Positions 5,139 through 20,694 of a DNA stretch of 64,000 nt are shown one piece after another (the first letter of the stretch is position 1; each line of letters begins with the position of its first letter). The stretch is taken from positions 326,622 to 390,621 of the forward strand of contig CAWIPU010000006.1 of the NCBI GenBank assembly GCA_963838115.1. The letters run 5' to 3'. The notes beneath the pieces were generated by a model. The model saw only the letters and a list, made by a program, of their open reading frames with translations. It was not told the origin of the DNA and ran no database searches. The stretch is from an uncultured Chloroflexia bacterium (GTDB lineage: Bacteria; Chloroflexota; Limnocylindria; Limnocylindrales; CSP1-4). The translations under genes were made by a program, and so were the position numbers.

Positions 5139-5906
5139 ATGAGCCTGCGGCTCACGATCCTCGGCGCATCGGCAGCTTGGACCGATCGTCCCTGCCGCCC
5201 ATCGTCGTGCTACCTCGTGGAGATCGGCAGCGAAGGCATCCTGCTTGACTTGGGCCAAGGTGCCTTGGGGTCGCTGTTCCCGCATCGTGACCCCTCCAGT
5301 CTGAACGCGGTCGTGATCAGCCACATGCACGGCGATCACCACGTGGATCTCATCCCGCTGCGCAATCTGCTCCGCTACGGCTATGACGAGCCGCGCCGCG
5401 TCGGCTTGCATGCCCCGGCGGGCCTACGTCATCGCTACGACGTCTTCAGCGGTGAAGACGGCTTCCTGGACATCCTCTTCGGTCCGGACCTGGTCGAAGG
5501 CACTCGCCGGACGGGGCGTTTCGACTTGCGAGCGCAACGCGTGACCCACTCGGGCCAGAGCTACGCCTTCCGGGTCAGCGACACGAACGATCCCGATGCT
5601 CCCGGCCTCGTCTACAGTGGCGACTGCGGCCGCGCGGATGAGCTGCTGCCGTTGATCCAAGAGGGTGACACCGTGCTTTGCGAAGCATTCTGGTCGACCC
5701 TCGAACCGATAGCTGGCGCCAACCACCTTGCCGCCGCGGATGCGGCTGATGTCGCCCGACGCGGAGGAGCTGCACACTTGATCCTGACCCACATCCTTGA
5801 GGCTCACGGTCCTCAAGCTGCGCTGCACGCGGCCGAGGGCATCTTCCCGGGCTCGGTCCAGCTGGCCGAGCCGGAGCTGGTCATTGAGATCGGACCTGGC
5901 CGATGA
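5139..5906 (+). CDS. MBL-fold metallo-hydrolase
   Basis: MSLRLTILGASAAW... with the HxHxDH motif (ISHMHGDHHVD). The long N-terminal extension of the ORF (from 4515) overlaps the carH-like gene in another frame and was discarded. Confidence 0.75.
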   Translation: MSLRLTILGASAAWTDRPCRPSSCYLVEIGSEGILLDLGQGALGSLFPHRDPSSLNAVVISHMHGDHHVDLIPLRNLLRYGYDEPRRVGLHAPAGLRHRYDVFSGEDGFLDILFGPDLVEGTRRTGRFDLRAQRVTHSGQSYAFRVSDTNDPDAPGLVYSGDCGRADELLPLIQEGDTVLCEAFWSTLEPIAGANHLAAADAADVARRGGAAHLILTHILEAHGPQAALHAAEGIFPGSVQLAEPELVIEIGPGR

Positions 5907-7592
5907 GTGCGCCCGGAACGACCGTGCTCTCGGTGCGGACGCGGATCCGTAGCCTGGTGGCTGAGGCATGGGCGCAGGCGACCGAATCGGGAGCGCTGCC
6001 AGCCATCGATGCAAAGCTCCGACCAGAGATCGAGATCGAACGACCATCCGATGCGGAGCATGGCGACCTGGCCGCGAACCTGGCCATGCGACTGGCGCGG
6101 CCGCTGCGACGCTCACCACTGCAGATCGCCGAGGTGCTGGCCGAGAGTCTGCGCTCCGTTGCCGCCGGTTCGGTCTTGACCGAAGTCCAGGTGGCACCGC
6201 CCGGCTTCATCAACATGCGCCTCTCCGCCGCGTGGCTGGAGAGCGTGCTCGATGAGGCTCGTGAGGCGGGAGATGCCTTCGGCCGAGTGACCCAGGAGCA
6301 GCCGCTCCATCTCAACATCGAGTTCGTCTCGGCCAACCCGACCGGCCCACTCCACGTCGGCAATGCTCGCGGTGCCTTTGTGGGGGACCTGTTGACGCGC
6401 GTGCTAGAGGGCGGCGGCCACACCGTTACGCGAGAGTACTACTTCAACGATTCAGGTACCCAGATCCGTCAACCTCGGTGCCTCGGTGGTCGCTCGACGG
6501 CTGGGCGAGGAGGTGCCCGAGGACGGATACCGCGGCGACTACGTCGAGGACCTCGCCGCCGAGCTGCCCCAAGACGTTTGGACCGCGGCCACCGCAGACG
6601 GCGCGGACCGCGACGGTATCGTCGCCGCGTGGGCCCAAGAGCGCGTCCGTGCCGGGATCGAGGAGAGCCTGGCTCGACTGGCTGTCCACTTCGACGTCTG
6701 GAAGAGCGAAGCCAGCCTGCACCGCGATGGCTGGGTCATGCGTGCCGTGGAACGACTGCAGGCTGGCGGCCACATCTTCGAGCAGGATGGCGCCACCTGG
6801 TTCCGCTCCACCACCTTCGGGGACGACAAGGACCGCGTGGTGTTCCGCTCGAATGGCGAACCCACGTACTTCGCGTCCGATATCGGCTACGTCAGCGAGA
6901 AGTTCAGTCGCGGCTTCGACCGGCTCATCTACATCTGGGGAGCCGATCATCACGGTACCGTCGCGCGCGTCCGTAACGCGGCTGAGGCGATGGGTTTCGA
7001 CAAGGACGCAGTGGAGATGCTGCTCGTAGCCTGGGTCCGGTTCGTGCGCGACGGCGTCGACGTCCCTATGAGCAAGCGCTCGGGCGAGTTCCTGGCGCTC
7101 GACGAGTTGCTCGAGGAGATCGGTGTGGATGCAGCGCGCTGGTCGTTCGCCTCGCGCGCGGCGAGTTCGCCCATCGATGTCGATATCGAGCTGGTCCGCA
7201 GGCAGTCCTCGGAGAACCCCGTTTACTACGTGCAGTACGCTCATGCCCGCATCAGCTCGATCCTGGCCAGGGCAGCCGCCGCCGGCCTGTCACCTGCGCC
7301 AAGCTTCAGCGGTGTGCTCCAGGGTGATGAGGTGGCCAGCGGCTTGGCACGCGAGGTGCTGCGCCTTCCGGAGGTCGTTGAGGACGGAGCCCGGGCCGAG
7401 GAGACACACGGCATCACCGCTTATGCCATGGAGTTGGCGACGACGTTCCACGCCTTTTATCGTGATCGCCGTGTCGTCGATCCTGACGACCCCGTGACCT
7501 CGGCCGGCCGACTGGCCCTCATGGGCGTGACGCGCAGTGCTATCCGCAACGCTCTGGCCTTGCTGGGCATCTCAGCTCCCGAATCGATGTAG
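5903..7592 (+). CDS. argS: Arginine--tRNA ligase, reading frame broken by a 1-nt frameshift near 6468-6472
   Basis: The N-terminal part (frame of 5903) carries the class I HIGH-type motif ANPTGPLHVGNARG and ends at ...YYFNDSGTQIR. The continuation NLGASVVARRLGEEV... through to YVQYAHARISSIL is in the frame of 6486. The start overlaps the upstream stop (ATGA). Confidence 0.85.
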
Positions 7593-7710: not shown

Positions 7711-10700
7711 TTACGGAGCAGCGATCTCGTCACCTAGGCCGAGCGCCTCAGCCACCGCGGCCAGTGCGGCATCGTCGCTGGTCAGCAGGACCAGCACCGG
7801 ATTGGACGCACCCGAAGACGCGTCCGCTTCAAGCACGGCGTGCGCGCCTGGCAGGTCCGCGATGACGGCGTTGGCGGCGTCGCCGAACCTACCGACGTTG
7901 CCCGCCTTGTCCCATTTGGTCTGCCAAACGATCGCCCATGATCCGTCGGGGCCATCGAGACTGACGAGTCGATCGCCACCCCAACCGGCAGCGGCCTTGT
8001 CGTCTCCGAGCCAAACCGCGGTCCGGAGCTCACCCATGGTTTGCTGCCACTGTTCGCTCCAGCCCTGGCCGAGCGCGTTGCCGATCCCGTCCAACACAAG
8101 GGACGTGGGCCGGTCGTCGGGATAGCGCTTGGGGTGAAGGATCTGCTCGGTCGTCTCGGGCACCCTGTCCCAAGCGCCGTTCACCGCATCCCAGCCGCCC
8201 TTATTGCGGAGGAAGTCAACGAACGACTGGCCCTCGACGAAGGGGAACGCGTACTCGCGCTGCAGCAGCTGCGGCATGGACCTCAGGATGCCTCCGTCGC
8301 CAGGGACCACCACGCCATCCACCTTGGCCTGATTGCCCGAGTTCACGTTCTGAGCGGACCAAGCGAGCATCGTGGCCGTGCCATCACCTTCTTCGAGCGC
8401 GGAAGCGGCGAGCACGGCATCGGCGTCGGTGGGTTCATCGACGACAGCGGCGTCGGCACCGAACGCCTGGTGTACGGCGGCCTGGCCGAACTCGCGAGCG
8501 GCCTCGGCGCGCTGCGGCAAGTTGAGCTTGTCGATGTCTCGGAGGATGGACTGGCGACCACGAGACTGGAGGTACGTGATCGGGAGATCCTGCCCATAGA
8601 GCTGGTCGAGGAGGGAGGCGAGATCATCATCGTTTCCGAGCAGCCCCATGCGCTTGAGAGCCTGTTCCTCCTGGGTCAGCGTGGATGATGGATAGAGGTT
8701 GTCGGCGGCCTGCCTGAGGAAGTCCGCCTGCTCGGCCGAACTGGCGCCGTCGTATGGGGTATTGCCCAGGTCCAACTGGCGGATCTCGGGCACCGTGAAG
8801 GCAACCGCATCCAACTGGTCGGCCACCTGCGCATTATCTAGGGAACCGCCATCGCCCCGAGGCTCGATCACCGGGCCCAGTGACACGACGTAGTCAACGC
8901 CACTGCCCTTGTCCAGCTCGGTTTCTGCAGGTGGATCCTGGCTGGTGACGATGCCAGCCGCGGCCGAGTCGTTGGCCTCGGCGCGCTCGCCAGGCTTCAA
9001 GCCCGCCGATGTAAGTGCATCGAGTGCATCGGCCTCGGGGAGACCGGTCACGTCGGGCACGCTGACCTGCTTGGGGCCGCGGCTGACGATGAGCGTCACC
9101 TCGGCGCCGACCTCGACGGTCTTGCCCGCGGCCGGTTCGGTCTTGACGGCGTCACCCGCGGCGACCTTGCCGTTGGTGCGTTCGTCGATGCTGACCGCGA
9201 GACCCTGCTCCTTGAGCGCGGCCTCGGCGTCGGCGGCCGACTGGCCGGCCACGTCGGGGATGTCGACCGCGGGCGGGCCGGAGCTGACGGTGAGATCCAC
9301 CGTGCTGCCCTGGTCCACCGAGCCGTCGGCTTCGGGATCCTGGGAGAGGACGGTGCCGGCGGCGGCAGCGGCCTCGGCCTTGCTGGTCTGGCCCGGCTTG
9401 AGCCCGGCGTCCTTGATGGCGGCCTTGGCATCGGCCTCGGGGAGACCGGTCACGTCGGGCACGCTGACCTGCTTGGGGCCGCGGCTGACGATGAGCGTCA
9501 CCTCGGCGCCGACCTCGACGGTCTTGCCCGCGGCCGGTTCGGTCTTGACGGCGTCACCCGCGGCGACCTTGCCGTTGGTGCGTTCGTCGATGCTGACCGC
9601 GAGACCCTGCTCCTTGAGCGCGGCCTCGGCGTCGGCGGCCGACTGGCCGGCCACGTCGGGGATGTCGACCGCGGGCGGGCCGGAGCTGACGGTGAGATCC
9701 ACCGTGCTGCCCTGGTCCACCGAGCCGTCGGCTTCGGGATCCTGGGAGAGGACGGTGCCGGCGGCGGCAGCGGCCTCGGCCTTGCTGGTCTGGCCCGGCT
9801 TGAGCCCGGCGTCCTTGATGGCGGCCTTGGCATCGGCCTCGGGGAGACCGGTCACGTCGGGCACGCTGACCTGCTTGGGGCCGCGGCTGACGATGAGCGT
9901 CACCTCGGCGCCGACCTCGACGGTCTTGCCCGCGGCCGGTTCGGTCTTGACGGCGTCACCCGCGGCGACCTTGCCGTTGGTGCGTTCGTCGATGCTGACC
10001 GCGAGACCCTGCTCCTTGAGCGCGGCCTCGGCGTCGGCGGCCGACTGGCCGGCCACGTCGGGGATGTCGACCGCGGGCGGGCCGGAGCTGACGGTGAGAT
10101 CCACCGTGCTGCCCTGGTCCACCGAGCCGTCGGCTTCGGGATCCTGGGAGAGGACGGTGCCGGCGGCGGCAGCGGCCTCGGCCTTGCTGGTCTGGCCCGG
10201 CTTGAGCCCGGCGTCCTTGATGGCGGCCTTGGCATCGGCCTCGGGGAGACCGGTCACGTCGGGCACGCTGACCTGCTTGGGGCCGCGGCTGACGATGAGC
10301 GTCACCTCGGCGCCGACCTCGACGGTCTTGCCCGCGGCCGGTTCGGTCTTGACGGCGTCACCCGCGGCGACCTTGCCGTTGGTGCGTTCGTCGATGCTGA
10401 CCGCGAGACCCTGCTCCTTGAGCGCGGCCTCGGCGTCGGCGGCCGACTGGCCGGCCACGTCGGGGATGTCGACCGCGGGCGGGCCGGAGCTGACGGTGAG
10501 ATCCACCGTGCTGCCCTGGTCCACCGAGCCGTCGGCTTCGGGATCCTGGGAGAGGACGGTGCCGGCGGCGGCAGCGGCCTCGGCCTTGCTGGTCTGGCCC
10601 GGCTTGAGCCCGGCGTCCTTGATGGCGGCCTTGGCATCGGCCTCGGGGAGACCGGTCACGTCGGGCACGCTGACCTGCTTGGGGCCGCGGCTGACGATGA

Positions 10701-13700
10701 GCGTCACCTCGGCGCCGACCTCGACGGTCTTGCCCGCGGCCGGTTCGGTCTTGACGGCGTCACCCGCGGCGACCTTGCCGTTGGTGCGTTCGTCGATGCT
10801 GACCGCGAGACCCTGCTCCTTGAGCGCGGCCTCGGCGTCGGCGGCCGACTGGCCGGCCACGTCGGGGATGTCGACCGCGGGCGGGCCGGAGCTGACGGTG
10901 AGATCCACCGTGCTGCCCTGGTCCACCGAGCCGTCGGCTTCGGGATCCTGGGAGAGGACGGTGCCGGCGGCGGCAGCGGCCTCGGCCTTGCTGGTCTGGC
11001 CCGGCTTGAGCCCGGCGTCCTTGATGGCGGCCTTGGCATCGGCCTCGGGGAGACCGGTCACGTCGGGCACGCTGACCTGCTTGGGGCCGCGGCTGACGAT
11101 GAGCGTCACCTCGGCGCCGACCTCGACGGTCTTGCCCGCGGCCGGTTCGGTCTTGACGGCGTCACCCGCGGCGACCTTGCCGTTGGTGCGTTCGTCGATG
11201 CTGACCGCGAGACCCTGCTCCTTGAGCGCGGCCTCGGCGTCGGCGGCCGACTGGCCGGCCACGTCGGGGATGTCGACCGCGGGCGGGCCGGAGCTGACGG
11301 TGAGATCCACCGTGCTGCCCTGGTCCACCGAGCCGTCGGCTTCGGGATCCTGGGAGAGGACGGTGCCGGCGGCGGCAGCGGCCTCGGCCTTGCTGGTCTG
11401 GCCCGGCTTGAGCCCGGCGTCCTTGATGGCGGCCTTGGCATCGGCCTCGGGGAGACCGGTCACGTCGGGCACGCTGACCTGCTTGGGGCCGCGGCTGACG
11501 ATGAGCGTCACCTCGGCGCCGACCTCGACGGTCTTGCCCGCGGCCGGTTCGGTCTTGACGGCGTCACCCGCGGCGACCTTGCCGTTGGTGCGTTCGTCGA
11601 TGCTGACCGCGAGACCCTGCTCCTTGAGCGCGGCCTCGGCGTCGGCGGCCGACTGGCCGGCCACGTCGGGGATGGTGCGCATGTTCGAACCTGTCGATAG
11701 GATCAGCCTCAAGGAGGAGTCAAGTGGAACCACAGAGCCCGCAGCGGGTTCGGTCTTGACGGCCTTACCCGCGTCGATCTTCTCCTGCGACTGTTCGACG
11801 GTTTCGCCGACGGTCAAGCCCGCGGACTCGATAGCTGCGACTGCGTCGGCTTGGGATAGATCACGGACATCAGGAACATCGACGTTGGGCGTGACGCCGT
11901 CGCTCCTGACATAGGCGACCGCGGAGCCCCGGGGCACCTCGGTGCCGGCGGCGGGATCGGAGCTGATGACATCGCCCGCGGGGACGCTGTCGCTGTAGGC
12001 GCTCGTGACCTCACCGACGCTGAGCCCGGCGTCGCTGAGCGTCTGCTCGGCGTCGGCGGCGGGACCCGCGAGGTCGGGCACGGCCACGGTGGGCACGGGC
12101 ACGGCCACCTGCAGGCTCACCGTGGAGCCCACGGGCAGCTCGGTGTCGGGGGCGGGGTCCTGGTCGAGGATGGTGTCGGGGGCGGCCGCGTCGGTCTCGC
12201 GGGACTGGGTCTCGAGGCCGAGACCGGCGGAATCGGCGGCGTCCTGCGCCGCGGCCAGGGTCAGGCCCACGAAGTCGGGGGTGGCCACGGTCTCCACGCC
12301 GTCGCTCCTGACATAGGCGACCGCGGAGCCCCGGGGCACCTCGGTGCCGGCGGCGGGATCGGAGCTGATGACATCGCCCGCGGGGACGCTGTCGCTGTAG
12401 GCGCTCGTGACCTCACCGACGCTGAGCCCGGCGTCGCTGAGCGTCTGCTCGGCGTCGGCGGCGGGACCCGCGAGGTCGGGCACGGCCACGGTGGGCACGG
12501 GCACGGCCACCTGCAGGCTCACCGTGGAGCCCACGGGCAGCTCGGTGTCGGGGGCGGGGTCCTGGTCGAGGATGGTGTCGGGGGCGGCCGCGTCGGTCTC
12601 GCGGGACTGGGTCTCGAGGCCGAGACCGGCGGAATTGGCGGCGTCCTGCGCCGCGGCCAGGGTCAGGCCCACGAAGTCGGGGGTGGCCACGGTCTCCACG
12701 CCGTCGCTCCTGACATAGGCGACCGCGGAGCCCCGGGGCACCTCGGTGCCGGCGGCGGGATCGGAGCTGATGACATCGCCCGCGGGGACGCTGTCGCTGT
12801 AGGCGCTCGTGACCTCACCGACGCTGAGCCCGGCGTCGCTGAGCGTCTGCTCGGCGTCGGCGGCGGGACCCGCGAGGTCGGGCACGGCCACGGTGGGCAC
12901 GGGCACGGCCACCTGCAGGCTCACCGTGGAGCCCACGGGCAGCTCGGTGTCGGGGGCGGGGTCCTGGTCGAGGATGGTGTCGGGGGCGGCCGCGTCGGTC
13001 TCGCGGGACTGGGTCTCGAGGCCGAGACCGGCGGAATCGGCGGCGTCCTGCGCCGCGGCCAGGGTCAGGCCCACGAAGTCGGGGGTGGCCACGGTCTCCA
13101 CGCCGTCGCTCCTGACATAGGCGACCGCGGAGCCCCGGGGCACCTCGGTGCCGGCGGCGGGATCGGAGCTGATGACATCGCCCGCGGGGACGCTGTCGCT
13201 GTAGGCGCTCGTGACCTCACCGACGCTGAGCCCGGCGTCGCTGAGCGTCTGCTCGGCGTCGGCGGCGGGACCCGCGAGGTCGGGCACGGCCACGGTGGGC
13301 ACGGGCACGGCCACCTGCAGGCTCACCGTGGAGCCCACGGGCAGCTCGGTGTCGGGGGCGGGGTCCTGGTCGAGGATGGTGTCGGGGGCGGCCGCGTCGG
13401 TCTCGCGGGACTGGGTCTCGAGGCCGAGACCGGCGGAATCGGCGGCGTCCTGCGCCGCGGCCAGGGTCAGGCCCACGAAGTCGGGGGTGGCCACGGTCTC
13501 CACGCCGTCGCTCCTGACATAGGCGACCGCGGAGCCCCGGGGCACCTCGGTGCCGGCGGCGGGATCGGAGCTGATGACATCGCCCGCGGGGACGCTGTCG
13601 CTGTAGGCGCTCGTGACCTCACCGACGCTGAGCCCGGCGTCGCTGAGCGTCTGCTCGGCGTCGGCGGCGGGACCCGCGAGGTCGGGCACGGCCACGGTGG

Positions 13701-16700
13701 GCACGGGCACGGCCACCTGCAGGCTCACCGTGGAGCCCACGGGCAGCTCGGTGTCGGGGGCGGGGTCCTGGTCGAGGATGGTGTCGGGGGCGGCCGCGTC
13801 GGTCTCGCGGGACTGGGTCTCGAGGCCGAGACCGGCGGAATTGGCGGCGTCCTGCGCCGCGGCCAGGGTCAGGCCCACGAAGTCGGGGGTGGCCACGGTC
13901 TCCACGCCGTCGCTCCTGACATAGGCGACCGCGGAGCCCCGGGGCACCTCGGTGCCGGCGGCGGGATCGGAGCTGATGACATCGCCCGCGGGGACGCTGT
14001 CGCTGTAGGCGCTCGTGACCTCACCGACGCTGAGCCCGGCGTCGCTGAGCGTCTGCTCGGCGTCGGCGGCGGGACCCGCGAGGTCGGGCACGGCCACGGT
14101 GGGCACGGGCACGGCCACCTGCAGGCTCACCGTGGAGCCCACGGGCAGCTCGGTGTCGGGGGCGGGGTCCTGGTCGAGGATGGTGTCGGGGGCGGCCGCG
14201 TCGGTCTCGCGGGACTGGGTCTCGAGGCCGAGACCGGCGGAATTGGCGGCGTCCTGCGCCGCGGCCAGGGTCAGGCCCACGAAGTCGGGGGTGGCCACGG
14301 TCTCCACGCCGTCGCTCCTGACATAGGCGACCGCGGAGCCCCGGGGCACCTCGGTGCCGGCGGCGGGATCGGAGCTGATGACATCGCCCGCGGGGACGCT
14401 GTCGCTGTAGGCGCTCGTGACCTCACCGACGCTGAGCCCGGCGTCGCTGAGCGTCTGCTCGGCGTCGGCGGCGGGACCCGCGAGGTCGGGCACGGCCACG
14501 GTGGGCACGGGCACGGCCACCTGCAGGCTCACCGTGGAGCCCACGGGCAGCTCGGTGTCGGGGGCGGGGTCCTGGTCGAGGATGGTGTCGGGGGCGGCCG
14601 CGTCGGTCTCGCGGGACTGGGTCTCGAGGCCGAGACCGGCGGAATTGGCGGCGTCCTGCGCCGCGGCCAGGGTCAGGCCCACGAAGTCGGGGGTGGCCAC
14701 GGTCTCCACGCCGTCGCTCCTGACATAGGCGACCGCGGAGCCCCGGGGCACCTCGGTGCCGGCGGCGGGATCGGAGCTGATGACATCGCCCGCGGGGACG
14801 CTGTCGCTGTAGGCGCTCGTGACCTCACCGACGCTGAGCCCGGCGTCGCTGAGCGTCTGCTCGGCGTCGGCGGCGGGACCCGCGAGGTCGGGCACGGCCA
14901 CGGTGGGCACGGGCACGGCCACCTGCAGGCTCACCGTGGAGCCCACGGGCAGCTCGGTGTCGGGGGCGGGGTCCTGGTCGAGGATGGTGTCGGGGGCGGC
15001 CGCGTCGGTCTCGCGGGACTGGGTCTCGAGGCCGAGACCGGCGGAATCGGCGGCGTCCTGCGCCGCGGCCAGGGTCAGGCCCACGAAGTCGGGGGTGGCC
15101 ACGGTCTCCACGCCGTCGCTCCTGACATAGGCGACCGCGGAGCCCCGGGGCACCTCGGTGCCGGCGGCGGGATCGGAGCTGATGACATCGCCCGCGGGGA
15201 CGCTGTCGCTGTAGGCGCTCGTGACCTCACCGACGCTGAGCCCGGCGTCGCTGAGCGTCTGCTCGGCGTCGGCGGCGGGACCCGCGAGGTCGGGCACGGC
15301 CACGGTGGGCACGGGCACGGCCACCTGCAGGCTCACCGTGGAGCCCACGGGCAGCTCGGTGTCGGGGGCGGGGTCCTGGTCGAGGATGGTGTCGGGGGCG
15401 GCCGCGTCGGTCTCGCGGGACTGGGTCTCGAGGCCGAGACCGGCGGAATCGGCGGCGTCCTGCGCCGCGGCCAGGGTCAGGCCCACGAAGTCGGGGGTGG
15501 CCACGGTCTCCACGCCGTCGCTCCTGACATAGGCGACCGCGGAGCCCCGGGGCACCTCGGTGCCGGCGGCGGGATCGGAGCTGATGACATCGCCCGCGGG
15601 GACGCTGTCGCTGTAGGCGCTCGTGACCTCACCGACGCTGAGCCCGGCGTCGCTGAGCGTCTGCTCGGCGTCGGCGGCGGGACCCGCGAGGTCGGGCACG
15701 GCCACGGTGGGCACGGGCACGGCCACCTGCAGGCTCACCGTGGAGCCCACGGGCAGCTCGGTGTCGGGGGCGGGGTCCTGGTCGAGGATGGTGTCGGGGG
15801 CGGCCGCGTCGGTCTCGCGGGACTGGGTCTCGAGGCCGAGACCGGCGGAATTGGCGGCGTCCTGCGCCGCGGCCAGGGTCAGGCCCACGAAGTCGGGGGT
15901 GGCCACGGTCTCCACGCCGTCGCTCCTGACATAGGCGACCGCGGAGCCCCGGGGCACCTCGGTGCCGGCGGCGGGATCGGAGCTGATGACATCGCCCGCG
16001 GGGACGCTGTCGCTGTAGGCGCTCGTGACCTCACCGACGCTGAGCCCGGCGTCGCTGAGCGTCTGCTCGGCGTCGGCGGCGGGACCCGCGAGGTCGGGCA
16101 CGGCCACGGTGGGCACGGGCACGGCCACCTGCAGGCTCACCGTGGAGCCCACGGGCAGCTCGGTGTCGGGGGCGGGGTCCTGGTCGAGGATGGTGTCGGG
16201 GGCGGCCGCGTCGGTCTCGCGGGACTGGGTCTCGAGGCCGAGACCGGCGGAATCGGCGGCGTCCTGCGCCGCGGCCAGGGTCAGGCCCACGAAGTCGGGG
16301 GTGGCCACGGTCTCCACGCCGTCGCTCCTGACATAGGCGACCGCGGAGCCCCGGGGCACCTCGGTGCCGGCGGCGGGATCGGAGCTGATGACATCGCCCG
16401 CGGGGACGCTGTCGCTGTAGGCGCTCGTGACCTCACCGACGCTGAGCCCGGCGTCGCTGAGCGTCTGCTCGGCGTCGGCGGCGGGACCCGCGAGGTCGGG
16501 CACGGCCACGGTGGGCACGGGCACGGCCACCTGCAGGCTCACCGTGGAGCCCACGGGCAGCTCGGTGTCGGGGGCGGGGTCCTGGTCGAGGATGGTGTCG
16601 GGGGCGGCCGCGTCGGTCTCGCGGGACTGGGTCTCGAGGCCGAGACCGGCGGAATCGGCGGCGTCCTGCGCCGCGGCCAGGGTCAGGCCCACGAAGTCGG

Positions 16701-19119
16701 GGGTGGCCACGGTCTCCACGCCGTCGCTCCTGACATAGGCGACCGCGGAGCCCCGGGGCACCTCGGTGCCGGCGGCGGGATCGGAGCTGATGACATCGCC
16801 CGCGGGGACGCTGTCGCTGTAGGCGCTCGTGACCTCACCGACGCTGAGCCCGGCGTCGCTGAGCGTCTGCTCGGCGTCGGCGGCGGGACCCGCGAGGTCG
16901 GGCACGGCCACGGTGGGCACGGGCACGGCCACCTGCAGGCTCACCGTGGAGCCCACGGGCAGCTCGGTGTCGGGGGCGGGGTCCTGGTCGAGGATGGTGT
17001 CGGGGGCGGCCGCGTCGGTCTCGCGGGACTGGGTCTCGAGGCCGAGACCGGCGGAATCGGCGGCGTCCTGCGCCGCGGCCAGGGTCAGGCCCACGAAGTC
17101 GGGGGTGGCCACGGTCTCCACGCCGTCGCTCCTGACATAGGCGACCGCGGAGCCCCGGGGCACCTCGGTGCCGGCGGCGGGATCGGAGCTGATGACATCG
17201 CCCGCGGGGACGCTGTCGCTGTAGGCGCTCGTGACCTCACCGACGCTGAGCCCGGCGTCGCTGAGCGTCTGCTCGGCGTCGGCGGCGGGACCCGCGAGGT
17301 CGGGCACGGCCACGGTGGGCACGGGCACGGCCACCTGCAGGCTCACCGTGGAGCCCACGGGCAGCTCGGTGTCGGGGGCGGGGTCCTGGTCGAGGATGGT
17401 GTCGGGGGCGGCCGCGTCGGTCTCGCGGGACTGGGTCTCGAGGCCGAGACCGGCGGAATCGGCGGCGTCCTGCGCCGCGGCCAGGGTCAGGCCCACGAAG
17501 TCGGGGGTGGCCACGGTCTCCACGCCGTCGCTCCTGACATAGGCGACCGCGGAGCCCCGGGGCACCTCGGTGCCGGCGGCGGGATCGGAGCTGATGACAT
17601 CGCCCGCGGGGACGCTGTCGCTGTAGGCGCTCGTGACCTCACCGACGCTGAGCCCGGCGTCGCTGAGCGTCTGCTCGGCGTCGGCGGCGGGACCCGCGAG
17701 GTCGGGCACGGCCACCGGCTCGGGACCGAGCGAAAGGACATAGTCCACCGCGGAACCGGGATCGACCTCGGCATCGGCGGCGGGATCGGAGCTGATGACG
17801 TGACCCGCCACGATGCTGTCATCGGTAGCCTCGCTGACGTCGCCGGGCACGAGGCCGGCATCATCGAGGGCGGCCAGGGCGTCGGCCTCCGGGAGGTCGA
17901 TGAGGTCGGGCACGGCCACCGGCTCGGGACCGAGCGAAAGGACATAGTCCACCGCGGAACCGGGATCGACCTCGGCATCGGCGGCGGGATCGGAGCTGAT
18001 GACGTGACCCGCCACGATGCTGTCATCGGTAGCCTCGCTGACGTCGCCGGGCACGAGGCCGGCATCATCGAGGGCGGCCAGGGCGTCGGCCTCCGGGAGG
18101 TCGATGAGGTCGGGCACGGCCACCGGCTCGGGACCGCTGCTCACGACGAGCGCGATCCTGCTGGCGGGCGCCAACTCGGCATCGGCTTTGGGGTCGGTGC
18201 TGATGACGATAGCGGCCTCGACAGTGTCGCTGGACTCCTCGGTGATCGCACCCACCCTGAAGCCAGCGTCCCGGATGTCCTTGACTGCGTCGTCCTGGGA
18301 GAGTCCCACCACGTCGGGCACTAAGTCGGTAGGAACAGCGGCGGCAACGGAGAGTTCGATCGTGGAGCCGACCTCCACCGCCTCACCTGGCGGGGGATCT
18401 TGGCCGACGACGGTGTCAGGCTCGACCTGGTCGGTCTCCACCTGATTGACACGGACGACGAGTCCGTAGTCATCTGCTGTAGCTTCCGCGTTCGCCAGCG
18501 TCAAGCCCTGGAAGTTGGGCGTATCGACGGAAGCGATCGCGGATGGTTCGGCGCTAGGCACCTCGGTCACGACCGGCGATGGCGACAGGCTCGCGTCGAC
18601 ATCAGTCGGTGAGTCGAACGGACGCAACACGATGAGCACGATGGCTAGTGCCACGATGAATGCACCTACGAGGATGCCGCCGACCAGCAGGACAGGCGTG
18701 CCCTCCTCGGGTGGCTCACCGCCATCACCGGAAGGCAGGATCGGGGGCTCGAGCGTCATCTCAGGCTTGGCGGCCAGAGCGGCGAGGGCGGCTTCGGTAG
18801 CCTCCGGGTCGGGCGCGACGGGCGTGGTCGTCCAAGCGGCTCCAGCAGCAGCGGCGTCAGCTGCCTCGGCGTCGGTCTCGGCGACGGTGCCTGTGGCTGC
18901 CTCGTCCTCGTCGGTATTCGCCTCGACCTCAGTCTCGGCGTCCACGGCTTCGTCGGCTTCAGCATCGTCGCTGGGTTCGGCGCCCACATCCTCAGCAATT
19001 GGTGAGGCCGCGAATTCTGGCTGCTCTGGGGTCGACTCGGCATCTTCAGGTCGGGGCGAGGTCGGGGAAGCGTCTGTGGACGGTGTGAGGTCGCCGGGAT
19101 CCGGCTTCTGATCAGTCAT
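7711..19119 (-). CDS. Giant single-pass membrane protein (3802 aa) with about 48 PASTA domains and a C-terminal degenerate metallopeptidase-like domain
   Basis: Uninterrupted 11,409-nt ORF. Acidic low-complexity N-terminus of about 145 aa. One TM helix (VLLVGGILVGAFIVALAIVLIVL). Repeated units of about 67 aa fit the PASTA pattern (VPDxxGxxxxxAxxxLxxAGLxxG...GxVIxxxPxAGxxVxxGSxVxL). The last ~390 aa are homologous to the neighbouring 19261-20649 product. Confidence 0.9.
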   Translation of the reverse strand: MTDQKPDPGDLTPSTDASPTSPRPEDAESTPEQPEFAASPIAEDVGAEPSDDAEADEAVDAETEVEANTDEDEAATGTVAETDAEAADAAAAGAAWTTTPVAPDPEATEAALAALAAKPEMTLEPPILPSGDGGEPPEEGTPVLLVGGILVGAFIVALAIVLIVLRPFDSPTDVDASLSPSPVVTEVPSAEPSAIASVDTPNFQGLTLANAEATADDYGLVVRVNQVETDQVEPDTVVGQDPPPGEAVEVGSTIELSVAAAVPTDLVPDVVGLSQDDAVKDIRDAGFRVGAITEESSDTVEAAIVISTDPKADAELAPASRIALVVSSGPEPVAVPDLIDLPEADALAALDDAGLVPGDVSEATDDSIVAGHVISSDPAADAEVDPGSAVDYVLSLGPEPVAVPDLIDLPEADALAALDDAGLVPGDVSEATDDSIVAGHVISSDPAADAEVDPGSAVDYVLSLGPEPVAVPDLAGPAADAEQTLSDAGLSVGEVTSAYSDSVPAGDVISSDPAAGTEVPRGSAVAYVRSDGVETVATPDFVGLTLAAAQDAADSAGLGLETQSRETDAAAPDTILDQDPAPDTELPVGSTVSLQVAVPVPTVAVPDLAGPAADAEQTLSDAGLSVGEVTSAYSDSVPAGDVISSDPAAGTEVPRGSAVAYVRSDGVETVATPDFVGLTLAAAQDAADSAGLGLETQSRETDAAAPDTILDQDPAPDTELPVGSTVSLQVAVPVPTVAVPDLAGPAADAEQTLSDAGLSVGEVTSAYSDSVPAGDVISSDPAAGTEVPRGSAVAYVRSDGVETVATPDFVGLTLAAAQDAADSAGLGLETQSRETDAAAPDTILDQDPAPDTELPVGSTVSLQVAVPVPTVAVPDLAGPAADAEQTLSDAGLSVGEVTSAYSDSVPAGDVISSDPAAGTEVPRGSAVAYVRSDGVETVATPDFVGLTLAAAQDAADSAGLGLETQSRETDAAAPDTILDQDPAPDTELPVGSTVSLQVAVPVPTVAVPDLAGPAADAEQTLSDAGLSVGEVTSAYSDSVPAGDVISSDPAAGTEVPRGSAVAYVRSDGVETVATPDFVGLTLAAAQDAANSAGLGLETQSRETDAAAPDTILDQDPAPDTELPVGSTVSLQVAVPVPTVAVPDLAGPAADAEQTLSDAGLSVGEVTSAYSDSVPAGDVISSDPAAGTEVPRGSAVAYVRSDGVETVATPDFVGLTLAAAQDAADSAGLGLETQSRETDAAAPDTILDQDPAPDTELPVGSTVSLQVAVPVPTVAVPDLAGPAADAEQTLSDAGLSVGEVTSAYSDSVPAGDVISSDPAAGTEVPRGSAVAYVRSDGVETVATPDFVGLTLAAAQDAADSAGLGLETQSRETDAAAPDTILDQDPAPDTELPVGSTVSLQVAVPVPTVAVPDLAGPAADAEQTLSDAGLSVGEVTSAYSDSVPAGDVISSDPAAGTEVPRGSAVAYVRSDGVETVATPDFVGLTLAAAQDAANSAGLGLETQSRETDAAAPDTILDQDPAPDTELPVGSTVSLQVAVPVPTVAVPDLAGPAADAEQTLSDAGLSVGEVTSAYSDSVPAGDVISSDPAAGTEVPRGSAVAYVRSDGVETVATPDFVGLTLAAAQDAANSAGLGLETQSRETDAAAPDTILDQDPAPDTELPVGSTVSLQVAVPVPTVAVPDLAGPAADAEQTLSDAGLSVGEVTSAYSDSVPAGDVISSDPAAGTEVPRGSAVAYVRSDGVETVATPDFVGLTLAAAQDAANSAGLGLETQSRETDAAAPDTILDQDPAPDTELPVGSTVSLQVAVPVPTVAVPDLAGPAADAEQTLSDAGLSVGEVTSAYSDSVPAGDVISSDPAAGTEVPRGSAVAYVRSDGVETVATPDFVGLTLAAAQDAADSAGLGLETQSRETDAAAPDTILDQDPAPDTELPVGSTVSLQVAVPVPTVAVPDLAGPAADAEQTLSDAGLSVGEVTSAYSDSVPAGDVISSDPAAGTEVPRGSAVAYVRSDGVETVATPDFVGLTLAAAQDAADSAGLGLETQSRETDAAAPDTILDQDPAPDTELPVGSTVSLQVAVPVPTVAVPDLAGPAADAEQTLSDAGLSVGEVTSAYSDSVPAGDVISSDPAAGTEVPRGSAVAYVRSDGVETVATPDFVGLTLAAAQDAANSAGLGLETQSRETDAAAPDTILDQDPAPDTELPVGSTVSLQVAVPVPTVAVPDLAGPAADAEQTLSDAGLSVGEVTSAYSDSVPAGDVISSDPAAGTEVPRGSAVAYVRSDGVETVATPDFVGLTLAAAQDAADSAGLGLETQSRETDAAAPDTILDQDPAPDTELPVGSTVSLQVAVPVPTVAVPDLAGPAADAEQTLSDAGLSVGEVTSAYSDSVPAGDVISSDPAAGTEVPRGSAVAYVRSDGVTPNVDVPDVRDLSQADAVAAIESAGLTVGETVEQSQEKIDAGKAVKTEPAAGSVVPLDSSLRLILSTGSNMRTIPDVAGQSAADAEAALKEQGLAVSIDERTNGKVAAGDAVKTEPAAGKTVEVGAEVTLIVSRGPKQVSVPDVTGLPEADAKAAIKDAGLKPGQTSKAEAAAAAGTVLSQDPEADGSVDQGSTVDLTVSSGPPAVDIPDVAGQSAADAEAALKEQGLAVSIDERTNGKVAAGDAVKTEPAAGKTVEVGAEVTLIVSRGPKQVSVPDVTGLPEADAKAAIKDAGLKPGQTSKAEAAAAAGTVLSQDPEADGSVDQGSTVDLTVSSGPPAVDIPDVAGQSAADAEAALKEQGLAVSIDERTNGKVAAGDAVKTEPAAGKTVEVGAEVTLIVSRGPKQVSVPDVTGLPEADAKAAIKDAGLKPGQTSKAEAAAAAGTVLSQDPEADGSVDQGSTVDLTVSSGPPAVDIPDVAGQSAADAEAALKEQGLAVSIDERTNGKVAAGDAVKTEPAAGKTVEVGAEVTLIVSRGPKQVSVPDVTGLPEADAKAAIKDAGLKPGQTSKAEAAAAAGTVLSQDPEADGSVDQGSTVDLTVSSGPPAVDIPDVAGQSAADAEAALKEQGLAVSIDERTNGKVAAGDAVKTEPAAGKTVEVGAEVTLIVSRGPKQVSVPDVTGLPEADAKAAIKDAGLKPGQTSKAEAAAAAGTVLSQDPEADGSVDQGSTVDLTVSSGPPAVDIPDVAGQSAADAEAALKEQGLAVSIDERTNGKVAAGDAVKTEPAAGKTVEVGAEVTLIVSRGPKQVSVPDVTGLPEADAKAAIKDAGLKPGQTSKAEAAAAAGTVLSQDPEADGSVDQGSTVDLTVSSGPPAVDIPDVAGQSAADAEAALKEQGLAVSIDERTNGKVAAGDAVKTEPAAGKTVEVGAEVTLIVSRGPKQVSVPDVTGLPEADALDALTSAGLKPGERAEANDSAAAGIVTSQDPPAETELDKGSGVDYVVSLGPVIEPRGDGGSLDNAQVADQLDAVAFTVPEIRQLDLGNTPYDGASSAEQADFLRQAADNLYPSSTLTQEEQALKRMGLLGNDDDLASLLDQLYGQDLPITYLQSRGRQSILRDIDKLNLPQRAEAAREFGQAAVHQAFGADAAVVDEPTDADAVLAASALEEGDGTATMLAWSAQNVNSGNQAKVDGVVVPGDGGILRSMPQLLQREYAFPFVEGQSFVDFLRNKGGWDAVNGAWDRVPETTEQILHPKRYPDDRPTSLVLDGIGNALGQGWSEQWQQTMGELRTAVWLGDDKAAAGWGGDRLVSLDGPDGSWAIVWQTKWDKAGNVGRFGDAANAVIADLPGAHAVLEADASSGASNPVLVLLTSDDAALAAVAEALGLGDEIAAP
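9026..11674 (-). repeat. Tandem array B: 402-bp unit (di-PASTA, 134 aa), about 6.6 copies, in frame inside the giant gene
   Basis: Period 402 is visible in the sequence and in the six identical antisense ORFs at 9096, 9498, ... 11106. I saw no substitutions between copies. Confidence 0.9.
11894..17715 (-). repeat. Tandem array A: 402-bp unit (di-PASTA, 134 aa), about 14.5 copies, in frame inside the giant gene
   Basis: Period 402 (14 identical antisense ORFs at 12005 ... 17231). The only variable site seen is at 12234+402k (c/t on the + strand), giving AADSAG versus AANSAG. Confidence 0.9.
17701..18135 (-). repeat. Tandem array C: 204-bp unit (single PASTA, 68 aa), about 2.1 copies
   Basis: 17701-17904 is identical to 17905-18108, and a third copy begins at 18109. 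Confidence 0.85.
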
Positions 19120-19196
19120 GGCAGGCGGACGATACGGGAGTGGGCCGCGTCATGCGAGCACCCCGACCGGTACTTCTGGGCTGATACCGACACAAG

Positions 19197-19218
19197 TGTC
19201 CGTTTCTTCATCGTCCGC
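19197..19218 (-). promoter_or_regulatory. Conserved 22-nt element upstream of the giant gene (copy 1)
   Basis: TGTCCGTTTCTTCATCGTCCGC (+ strand) matches 20673-20694 at 20 of 22 positions, while the flanking sequence is not conserved. It lies 77 nt upstream of the ATG at 19119. Confidence 0.35.
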
Positions 19219-19260
19219 CGCTCCTCGCTTCACTCGCCGGCGGCTCGAGATGTTCAGTCG

Positions 19261-20649
19261 TCAGAGGCCGAGCGCCACCTCAAGGGCACCCAATGTCTCC
19301 TCACTGTCGGCCACCAGAATGAGTACTGGAGAGGATAGACCTCCGACGATATCGGCATCGGTCACGGAGTGCGCACCGGGCAAATCCTTCATGGCATCCT
19401 GCGCGGCTTGGTGGAACTCCTTCTGGTCGGCCTCGGTGTCCCAGTCGCTCTGCCAGACCACGGCCCAGGCACCACCAGGACCATCGAGGCTCACCAGCCG
19501 GTCACCGCCCCAGCCGGCCGCCGCGGAGGCATTCGGCAACTGTCCGGGCAGGCCTGGGAACAACGACTGGCGCTTGTCGCCATCTGCCACCCACACGCCG
19601 ACCTGCATCTCGCCGAGGGTCTGCTGGTAGCTGGTGGACCAGTCTGGACCGAGCGACGCAGCGACTTCGGGCAGGACGATCTCGACGGGCACCTCATCGG
19701 GATACAGCTCTGGGTGCAGGATCTGCTCGGTCGAAACCGGCTGCGCATCCCACGCCTGGTCGACCGCGGCCCAGTCACCTCGACCACGGAGCGCCATCAC
19801 ATACGCGTAACCGTCGATATAGGGGAACTCAAGCTGTCGCTGCAGGATCATGGGCATACGGCTGAGCGTCTTTTGGTCCTGCTTGGTGAGCGACTGTGCC
19901 GCGACTCGTAGCAGATCGGTCAGCTTGAGCTCACGAGTCGCCCAGTCGTACATCACCGCGGTGGCGTCGCCTTCGATGAGTGCCTGTTGGGCGAGGATGG
20001 CGTCGGAGCGATCGAGATCATCGATACGCTGGCCCTCCAGGTCCCACTGGGCATCCTGCAGCGCATGGTCATATTCATGCGCGACGACGATGGACTCCAG
20101 CGCCCCGATCTTGTCGATGGGACCGATGAGCGAGAACGTCTTGGTCAGTGGGTCATAGTAGGCCAACACCTGGCTGTCATAGATGGCGAGGATGAGCTCC
20201 TCAAGGTCGTCATCCGGCCCCAGGAGACCAAGGCGCGTGAAGGCCGCGTCCTCGGCTTGGACAGCGGCGTCGCTGTACTCAGCACGGAACAGGGCGCGCA
20301 GTTCACTGCGGAAGGCCTGGCTGTCGATGACGCGATAGGCGACGTCCTCGGCCGGCGGCAACCCACGTACCGGGTGGACCCCGCCGATGATCTGGCCGAC
20401 CTTCTTGACCATCTTGGAGTCGAACCCATCCGGCAGCGGTGCCGCCACCGCCGCGAGGCTGGCCTGGGGCGACTGCGAAGCGTCCTGAGCGCTGGCTGGC
20501 CCGAGGCCGAAGGACGCCAGCAGCACGATCGACACGAGTGCGGCCGACAGGGCGAAGCGGTTGCCAGGACGCGGGTGTGGAGCGTGATACGTCGATGCCA
20601 TAGGAGTGCATTCTGCCAGTACGACGCGACTAACACCATCGAAGGCCAT
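19261..20649 (-). CDS. Secreted or membrane-anchored HExxH-motif protein (putative zinc metallopeptidase), paralogue of the giant protein's C-terminal domain
   Basis: Hydrophobic N-terminal segment FALSAALVSIVLLASFGLGPASA. HEYDH motif followed by IEGDA. Clear similarity along its length to residues ~3410-3802 of the giant protein (shared blocks include GLLGxDDDL, EQILHP, AAGWGGDRLVSLDGP and DLPGAH). An alternative start is at 20601. Confidence 0.8.
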   Translation of the reverse strand: MAFDGVSRVVLAECTPMASTYHAPHPRPGNRFALSAALVSIVLLASFGLGPASAQDASQSPQASLAAVAAPLPDGFDSKMVKKVGQIIGGVHPVRGLPPAEDVAYRVIDSQAFRSELRALFRAEYSDAAVQAEDAAFTRLGLLGPDDDLEELILAIYDSQVLAYYDPLTKTFSLIGPIDKIGALESIVVAHEYDHALQDAQWDLEGQRIDDLDRSDAILAQQALIEGDATAVMYDWATRELKLTDLLRVAAQSLTKQDQKTLSRMPMILQRQLEFPYIDGYAYVMALRGRGDWAAVDQAWDAQPVSTEQILHPELYPDEVPVEIVLPEVAASLGPDWSTSYQQTLGEMQVGVWVADGDKRQSLFPGLPGQLPNASAAAGWGGDRLVSLDGPGGAWAVVWQSDWDTEADQKEFHQAAQDAMKDLPGAHSVTDADIVGGLSSPVLILVADSEETLGALEVALGL

Positions 20650-20672: not shown

Positions 20673-20694
20673 TGTGCGTTTCTTCATCGTTCGC
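20673..20694 (-). promoter_or_regulatory. Conserved 22-nt element upstream of the HExxH paralogue (copy 2)
   Basis: TGTGCGTTTCTTCATCGTTCGC, identical to 19197-19218 at 20 of 22 positions. Confidence 0.35.

Follow-up and report, generated by a model that had tools for sequence, protein, structure and literature searches.

Why would a bacterium keep, side by side on one strand, a secreted protein with an intact HExxH zinc-binding motif and a giant surface protein whose homologous C-terminal domain has lost that motif? The question is raised by a 64,000-nucleotide (nt) stretch of DNA, the window, from a soil-type Chloroflexota genome (uncultured Chloroflexia bacterium, GenBank assembly GCA_963838115.1, contig CAWIPU010000006.1, positions 326,622 to 390,621), in which the gene of a giant protein and that of a free-standing paralogue, P0002, both lie on the minus strand with an intergenic gap of exactly 141 bp. 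A first-pass annotation, made from the letters alone, had read the two as an active secreted metallopeptidase-like enzyme paired with a tethered pseudo-enzyme on a stalk of PASTA domains. Our analysis points the same way: the pair probably represents live and dead paralogues of a cell-surface, zincin-like (gluzincin-type, HExxH...E) putative metallopeptidase family. The features concerned, with amino-acid (aa) positions, are:

7711..19119, minus strand: giant protein, 3802 aa, reading frame intact
18622..18684, minus strand: single predicted transmembrane (TM) helix of the giant, aa ~146–166, with a Kyte-Doolittle maximum of 3.0 at aa 145–147
8872..18528, minus strand: PASTA stalk of the giant, 48 contiguous domains, aa 198–3416, delimited with a PASTA hidden Markov model built in this analysis
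7714..8871, minus strand: putative C-terminal pseudo-zincin head of the giant, aa 3417–3802 (386 aa), homologous to the paralogue domain, catalytic-type residues replaced
8482..8496, minus strand: REFGQ in the place of HExxH, aa 3542–3546, both His replaced, Glu kept
8377..8394, minus strand: EEGDGT opposite EGDAT, aa 3576–3581, Glu kept in the giant, mostly Gln in its clade
19261..20649, minus strand: free paralogue P0002, 462 aa when read from its first ATG, putative signal peptide followed by a PF26686/Hvo_1808-like zincin-like domain
20065..20079, minus strand: HEYDH, aa 191–195, HExxH motif within the predicted active-site helix, with H191 and H195 100% conserved in 272 intact homologues
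19960..19974, minus strand: EGDAT, aa 226–230, E226, on the helix that follows, being the candidate third zinc ligand (HExxH-x30-E)

The homology claimed between the paralogue and the C-terminus of the giant is borne out. BLASTP aligns P0002 with the last 429 aa of the giant at 39% identity over 322 aa (E = 2e-74) in the absence of low complexity, which removes the concern that the two might be alike in low-complexity segments only, and every block quoted in the first-pass annotation, GLLG(P/N)DDDL, TEQILHP..YPD, AAGWGGDRLVSLDGP and DLPGAH, is found in both proteins. In the alignment, HEYDH of the paralogue falls opposite REFGQ of the giant, so that both His residues are indeed replaced, and IEGDAT falls opposite EEGDGT. 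The same-strand adjacency likewise agrees with the open reading frame (ORF) coordinates, 7711–19119 and 19261–20649. A search of the whole genome returned two copies of the family, namely the head of the giant and the free paralogue.

Translation of the paralogue probably begins at Met17 (ATG at 20601), since the resulting 446 aa is the length of most orthologues. Its N-terminus contains a hydrophobic core at aa ~31–50 followed by ASA-QD at aa 52–56, and judged by this composition it looks like a Sec signal peptide; the product of this upstream gene would be a Sec-secreted, catalytically competent enzyme. The giant begins with ~145 acidic, low-complexity, cytoplasmic residues that give no Pkinase match, and passes through the predicted TM helix into the PASTA array, of which the first 573 aa of the protein alone match PF03793 with an E value of 6e-73. 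No kinase or transpeptidase module was found in the giant by Pfam and NCBIfam profile scans, in which the PASTA kinase model NF033483 reached 14.8 bits against a cut-off of 450 bits. The giant would be anchored in the membrane and would carry, at the distal end of the 48-PASTA stalk, a domain copy unable to bind the catalytic zinc.

The family, which the first-pass annotation had left unassigned, can now be described by profile as PF26686/Hvo_1808-like, with Zincin_2 as a distant match in fold. The Hvo_1808-family surface protein model NF038145 scores 149.9 bits (E = 1.2e-43) against the paralogue and 91 bits (E = 9.7e-26) against the head of the giant, both under the curated cut-off of 200 bits; the two are relatives of the Hvo_1808 family and not equivalogs, and all close database homologues of both proteins carry a precomputed PF26686 label. 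The likeness to Hvo_1808 thus consists in a shared domain family by profile, with extracytoplasmic and cell-associated members, whereas the reference protein is an archaeal lipoprotein and the present proteins are bacterial, secreted or TM/PASTA-anchored and score below the cut-off. HVO_1808 is a processed, cell-associated lipobox protein, which is the only experimental information on the family (PMC2945643); literature searches on PF26686, 3CMN/Chloroflexus and HVO_1808 returned no functional data, HVO_1808 appearing solely as a model of lipoprotein processing. The family is large, the free protein having more than 2,100 relatives at an E value of 0.001 among the candidates scored and the head of the giant matching 5,792 representatives at 50% identity. 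It occurs in 71 of the 121 genomes of our class survey, nearly always as one free-standing copy of ~450 aa, and, among 14 control genomes, in Haloferax volcanii alone.

Distant members display other architectures, in which a single protein carries the domain in two intact copies or combines it with TPR arrays or with a beta-propeller/PKD (P0136, 1336 aa; P0187 and P0251, ~1100 aa; P0264, 1283 aa). The metagenomic representative P0194 (1042 aa) has two tandem copies without HExxH (YWYTR and TYYVF) behind a TM segment; its N-terminal fragment resembles by eye the end of a Hanks-type kinase, but it gives no Pfam match and a kinase fusion is not relied upon here. The PF26686/Hvo_1808-like domain is a widely reused extracytoplasmic module.

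Is this family one of peptidases? AlphaFold2 (AF2) models of the paralogue domain and of the head of the giant, with predicted local distance difference test (pLDDT) values of 93.5 and 94.2, share the same topology, in which a small beta-sheet is followed by a long helix bearing HExxH or REFGQ, a second long helix bearing EGDAT or EEGDGT, further helices and a C-terminal alpha/beta subdomain. In the trimmed model of the paralogue, HEYDH lies inside the predicted helix 124–143 and E226 on the helix that follows, as in clan MA peptidases, and E226 is 100% conserved in intact forms; in the head of the giant, REFGQ occupies the corresponding helix. Foldseek with the active paralogue retrieved one significant match from the PDB, 3CMN (E = 8.9e-4, probability 1.0, template-modelling scores of 0.39/0.50), and M61 appeared at an E value of 0.75. 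3CMN is a Chloroflexus aurantiacus "putative hydrolase with a novel fold", which we show here to be Pfam Zincin_2 (PF10103): the PF10103 protein of the window's own genome matches 3CMN at 6.5e-62 across the HETTH...EG region. As in Zincin_2 and other gluzincins, the HExxH and the Glu of the paralogue occupy consecutive helices, whereas the protein shares 16% identity with 3CMN, has no sequence-level match to it and possesses the additional C-terminal alpha/beta subdomain. In addition, Zn_peptidase_2 is matched weakly by 33 of 75 family members, and more remote members give matches to DUF6782 and M78 in the region of the motif.

A different reading is that the family are not peptidases at all, HExxH...E serving another zinc-dependent or structural role such as binding or modifying a non-peptide envelope polymer, and that the pair is an active/inactive pair of some other activity. 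We consider this very unlikely. In its favour, no member has a characterised activity, the local Pfam copy, which does not contain the PF26686 model, gave no significant match besides PASTA for either domain, sequence and profile searches of the PDB with both domains returned no relatives, and the fold similarity to zincins is marginal; by comparison, the motif pattern on two consecutive helices after a beta-sheet is a gluzincin hallmark, and weak profile matches to zinc-peptidase families recur. Taken together, HExxH-x30-E, the 3CMN match and these weak profile matches support, without proving, a gluzincin-like zinc hydrolase at the level of sequence and predicted structure. In both models the C-terminal half also bears a weak likeness to two extracellular sensor domains, those of PknH and TiME (probability 0.8–0.9, E = 0.16–0.3), and Foldseek with the dead head retrieved nothing else; we treat this similarity between models as a lead only. 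The Zincin_2 protein of this genome itself lies within a 739-aa ORF, 421–2640 on the minus strand of L074 (G000:C14:~103222-104235), whose C-terminal half matches D-2-hydroxyacid dehydrogenase (E = 1.7e-48); the ORF represents a fusion or else runs through two genes.

The conservation of the motif residues separates the two proteins sharply. In a domain alignment of 326 sequences, the 261 H-E-H-E sequences without PASTA keep H, E, H and Glu throughout, and H191, H195 and E226, together with the conserved Tyr, are kept in 272/272 homologues with intact HExxH; nearly all members of both sets are free-standing. HEYDH therefore occupies a conserved, catalytic-type position, and the doubt raised in the first-pass annotation, that it might lie off such a position, is answered by the invariance of these three residues. 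The REFGR clade, 44 sequences including the giant, reads R-E-x-x-R/Q, mostly with EQGDGT. When the 272 intact and 44 REFGR sequences are compared at positions conserved in at least 90% of intact forms, eight are replaced in the REFGR clade (H191, H195, L197, Q198, E226, A229, Y277 and P327), with H191 changed to R, H195 to R/Q, E226 to Q (Gln or Leu in most) and Y277 to F; at these four positions the giant of the window has R, Q, E (kept) and F. A further 38 conserved positions are kept in the clade, including E192, G227–D228, the TEQILHP..Y block and the GWGGD block, and the Glu of HExxH is retained by nearly all of its members. Such a pattern in the alignment is what a loss targeted at the metal site and at the likely transition-state Tyr leaves behind when the remainder of the domain is preserved.

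The head is not decaying. Pairwise ratios of nonsynonymous to synonymous substitution (dN/dS) in six species are 0.13–0.27, or about 0.15, for the head and 0.10–0.17 for the free copy, indicating that the head is under purifying selection and thus functional. It combines homology with replaced ligand residues and purifying selection, as expected of a pseudopeptidase. The earlier proposal is thereby supported in part: the paralogue has conserved catalytic-type residues and a putative signal peptide, and the head lacks both His residues and the Tyr but keeps its fold (pLDDT 94) and is selectively maintained; the enzymatic activity that it ascribed to the paralogue stays a prediction. With its fold and most conserved surface positions kept, the dead head would serve as a non-catalytic binding module.

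The same data bear on the idea that the head is an enzyme of altered chemistry, a metal-independent or differently liganded hydrolase, and the two genes are isozymes. The retained HExxH Glu in nearly all REFGR members, the third-ligand Glu that the giant also keeps and the strong purifying selection on the head would agree with it. Against this, both His residues are replaced in all clade members, the third Glu is mostly Gln/Leu and the Tyr is Phe, and sister dead clades carry entirely different residues (AAGQADT, AVALAEA) without the Glu, showing that the site is not under a common constraint. We therefore hold altered chemistry to be highly improbable.

How the live and dead forms arose can be traced in a gene tree of 93 sequences (quick IQ-TREE, LG+C20). 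PASTA-fused domains form a single clade with a Shimodaira-Hasegawa-like approximate likelihood ratio test (SH-aLRT) support of 96, in which intact PASTA-fused forms (HEYDHALQD...IEGDAT) are the earliest branches, and the dead forms constitute a single nested clade (SH-aLRT 97) with the sub-clades REFGR, AAGQADT/AAGEAGK and AVALAEA. Parsimony requires one change for PASTA fusion and one for HExxH loss. The nesting of the dead forms among intact PASTA-anchored ones means that fusion preceded loss. The notion that loss of HExxH goes with PASTA fusion, which the first-pass annotation had proposed to examine by alignment, is rejected as it stands, since the genus also contains intact PASTA-fused forms; a fused domain need not have lost the motif. 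The free paralogue forms a clade of its own, with a long stem (0.54) and with TM-anchored forms from a sister genus as neighbours. The best tree places this free clade apart from the dead clade, but an approximately unbiased (AU) test with the two as sisters gave p = 0.22 and does not reject that arrangement; the pair may have arisen by recent tandem duplication.

If the dead head has lost catalysis, does its maintenance depend on the live paralogue? We surveyed 32 genomes of the genus besides that of the window. The REFGR head is present in 17 of the 32, in open frames of up to 3277 aa, and the co-occurrence of the two genes, for which the first-pass annotation had suggested a survey, is complete, a P0002-type gene being present in 17/17. 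Where both genes are on one contig, the P0002-type gene is always on the same strand and upstream of the giant, and mostly directly adjacent to it (for example in G170, G329 and G387). Conversely, an intact PASTA-anchored copy in six genomes and an intact TM-anchored copy in two are the sole family copy in 8/8. In two of the genomes with an intact anchored gene, G206 and G307, this gene lies between argS and an MBL-FTCD-GNAT block, as does the giant of the window, and this synteny identifies the giant as the positional orthologue of the intact anchored enzyme. Between the anchored gene and the MBL gene in G206 and G307 there is no gene and no room for a free copy; in this comparison of the orthologous locus, a free gene at the argS/MBL site occurs only where the anchored copy is dead. 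The free copy may have taken over catalysis, or retained it, as the anchored copy turned into a binder or scaffold.

A shared element upstream of both genes provides a further link:

19201..19214, minus strand: ACGATGAAGAAACG, copy 1, 82–95 nt upstream of the ATG of the giant, in a longer conserved block with a GTGAAG box
20677..20690, minus strand: ACGATGAAGAAACG, copy 2, exact, upstream of the paralogue
19197–19218 and 20673–20694, minus strand: extended element ...GTGAAG-N17/18-(A/G)A(C/T)GATGAAGAAACG(G/C)ACA...

The two exact copies of the 14-mer ACGATGAAGAAACG, one before each gene, are the only ones in the 3.5-Mb genome. In both blocks a GTGAAG box lies 17–18 nt upstream of the 14-mer, and the blocks are conserved at both positions in four other species. 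The intergenic regions gave no Rfam, sigma-70 promoter or intrinsic terminator matches. The arrangement suggests common regulation of two transcription starts, and the element could be a regulator binding site or an alternative-sigma promoter. As far as comparative genomics can tell, the conserved syntenic pair and its shared upstream element fit a joint working of the two proteins.

The alternative most relevant here is that the proteins act independently, the head being a ligand-binding or adhesive fibre tip or a sensor-type module, and that their adjacency reflects the origin or landing site of the gene. Dead copies do occur elsewhere: P0140 and P0165 are PASTA-anchored and accompanied by a different, non-adjacent free paralogue, and the two tandem dead copies of P0194 stand behind a cytoplasmic region. 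The PknH/TiME-like C-terminal half and the presence of a third free paralogue elsewhere in some REFGR genomes would also suit such an arrangement. By comparison, the P0002-type gene that accompanies the REFGR head in each of the 17 other genomes and, where one contig holds both, lies upstream in the same orientation and mostly adjacent, the genome-unique upstream element that is common to both genes and conserved across species, and the lack of a free copy in genomes with an intact anchored copy speak for a functional connection, and independence appears to us possible but unlikely. The third intact free-standing paralogue forms a clade (L054-L060) ~40% identical to P0002; it is found in G238, G444, G484, G360, G396, G460 and G189 and is absent from the genome of the window.

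Several observations weigh against the interpretation of the locus as a cooperating live/dead pair of zincin-like paralogues. Two dead sub-clades (G189 and G350/G221) pair with a different, non-adjacent free paralogue, so adjacency is not required; in G189 and G350 this is an intact free paralogue elsewhere in the genome, whereas G221 shows no more than a partial second match, located at the end of a contig. The complementary distribution of free and intact anchored copies rests on very few events, a single loss and a free copy gained once or twice, and is suggestive, not statistically independent, evidence. The giant keeps both the HExxH Glu and the third-ligand Glu, so that non-canonical chemistry is conceivable. 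Resemblance in fold to a zincin of solved structure is weak, with TM scores of 0.39/0.50, and Foldseek with the dead head gave no zincin match, 3CMN not being retrieved. Finally, no activity, metal binding or substrate has been reported for any family member.

We nevertheless favour a live/dead pair as the probable explanation. The head may capture substrate, or it may dock the free enzyme and position it away from the membrane, and the substrate would be a cell-envelope or extracellular peptide. A more specific form of this idea is speculative, and we judge it decidedly unlikely: the secreted paralogue would dock on the head, the two perhaps forming a heterodimer that goes back to an ancestral homodimer, and catalysis would be held at the tip of the length-variable stalk, far from the membrane. 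If it were true, an ancestral enzyme anchored as one piece would have come apart into two components, a catalytic subunit that can detach and an anchor without catalysis, and Chloroflexota would possess a type of two-component surface protease not described before.

Two further features of the locus concern the stalk and the neighbouring argS gene. Much of the stalk consists of nearly identical repeats:

9026–11674, minus strand: in-frame tandem array of a 402-bp (two-PASTA) unit, 6.6 copies, 100% identical
11894–17715, minus strand: in-frame tandem array of a 402-bp (two-PASTA) unit, 14.5 copies, 99% identical

Orthologous open frames across the genus range from ~900 to 3277 aa, some of them cut by contig ends, and stalk length seems to change fast. 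Estimated from the number of PASTA domains, the fully extended stalk could be of the order of 100 nm or more. The arginyl-tRNA synthetase gene argS, at 5903–7592 on the plus strand, is split into two overlapping frames, 5903–6976 with the N-terminal domain and 6486–7592 with the catalytic and DALR parts. Its orthologues in G206 and G307 are single frames, and the split probably reflects a frameshift near 6470–6490, an assembly indel, because argS is essential.

The giant resembles PASTA Ser/Thr kinases (PknB/Stk1, NF033483) and class B penicillin-binding proteins (PBPs; PBP2x) in having a membrane anchor and extracellular PASTA domains (PF03793), whereas it contains neither a kinase nor a transpeptidase domain, has 48 PASTA domains and carries an effector domain at its distal extracellular end. 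Known PASTA kinases and PBPs have a handful of PASTA domains. Inactive homologues retained under selection alongside an active relative, with substituted zinc ligands, are familiar among pseudopeptidases. Examples are FtsHi with FtsH, inactive ADAMs and heteromeric M16B, and a review assigns to such pseudopeptidases the roles of binding, scaffolding or regulating partners (PMC11266112). The present case differs from these in that the fold family is another one, the dead copy is mounted on the end of a giant PASTA stalk at the bacterial surface, and the partnership is deduced only from genomics.

Enzyme/pseudoenzyme pairs as such are well known; the probable live/dead pair described here is new and belongs to an uncharacterised family, one with thousands of members and without a characterised activity, and its dead copy forms the head of an unusual kinase-less, PBP-less giant PASTA stalk. 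H191, E192, H195, E226 and Y277 are candidate catalytic residues for mutagenesis. The genus provides natural controls at the same locus, one intact anchored enzyme in some species and a dead anchored copy with a free live copy in others, and this within-genus comparison offers a direct way to test the role of the family and the purpose of the poly-PASTA stalk.

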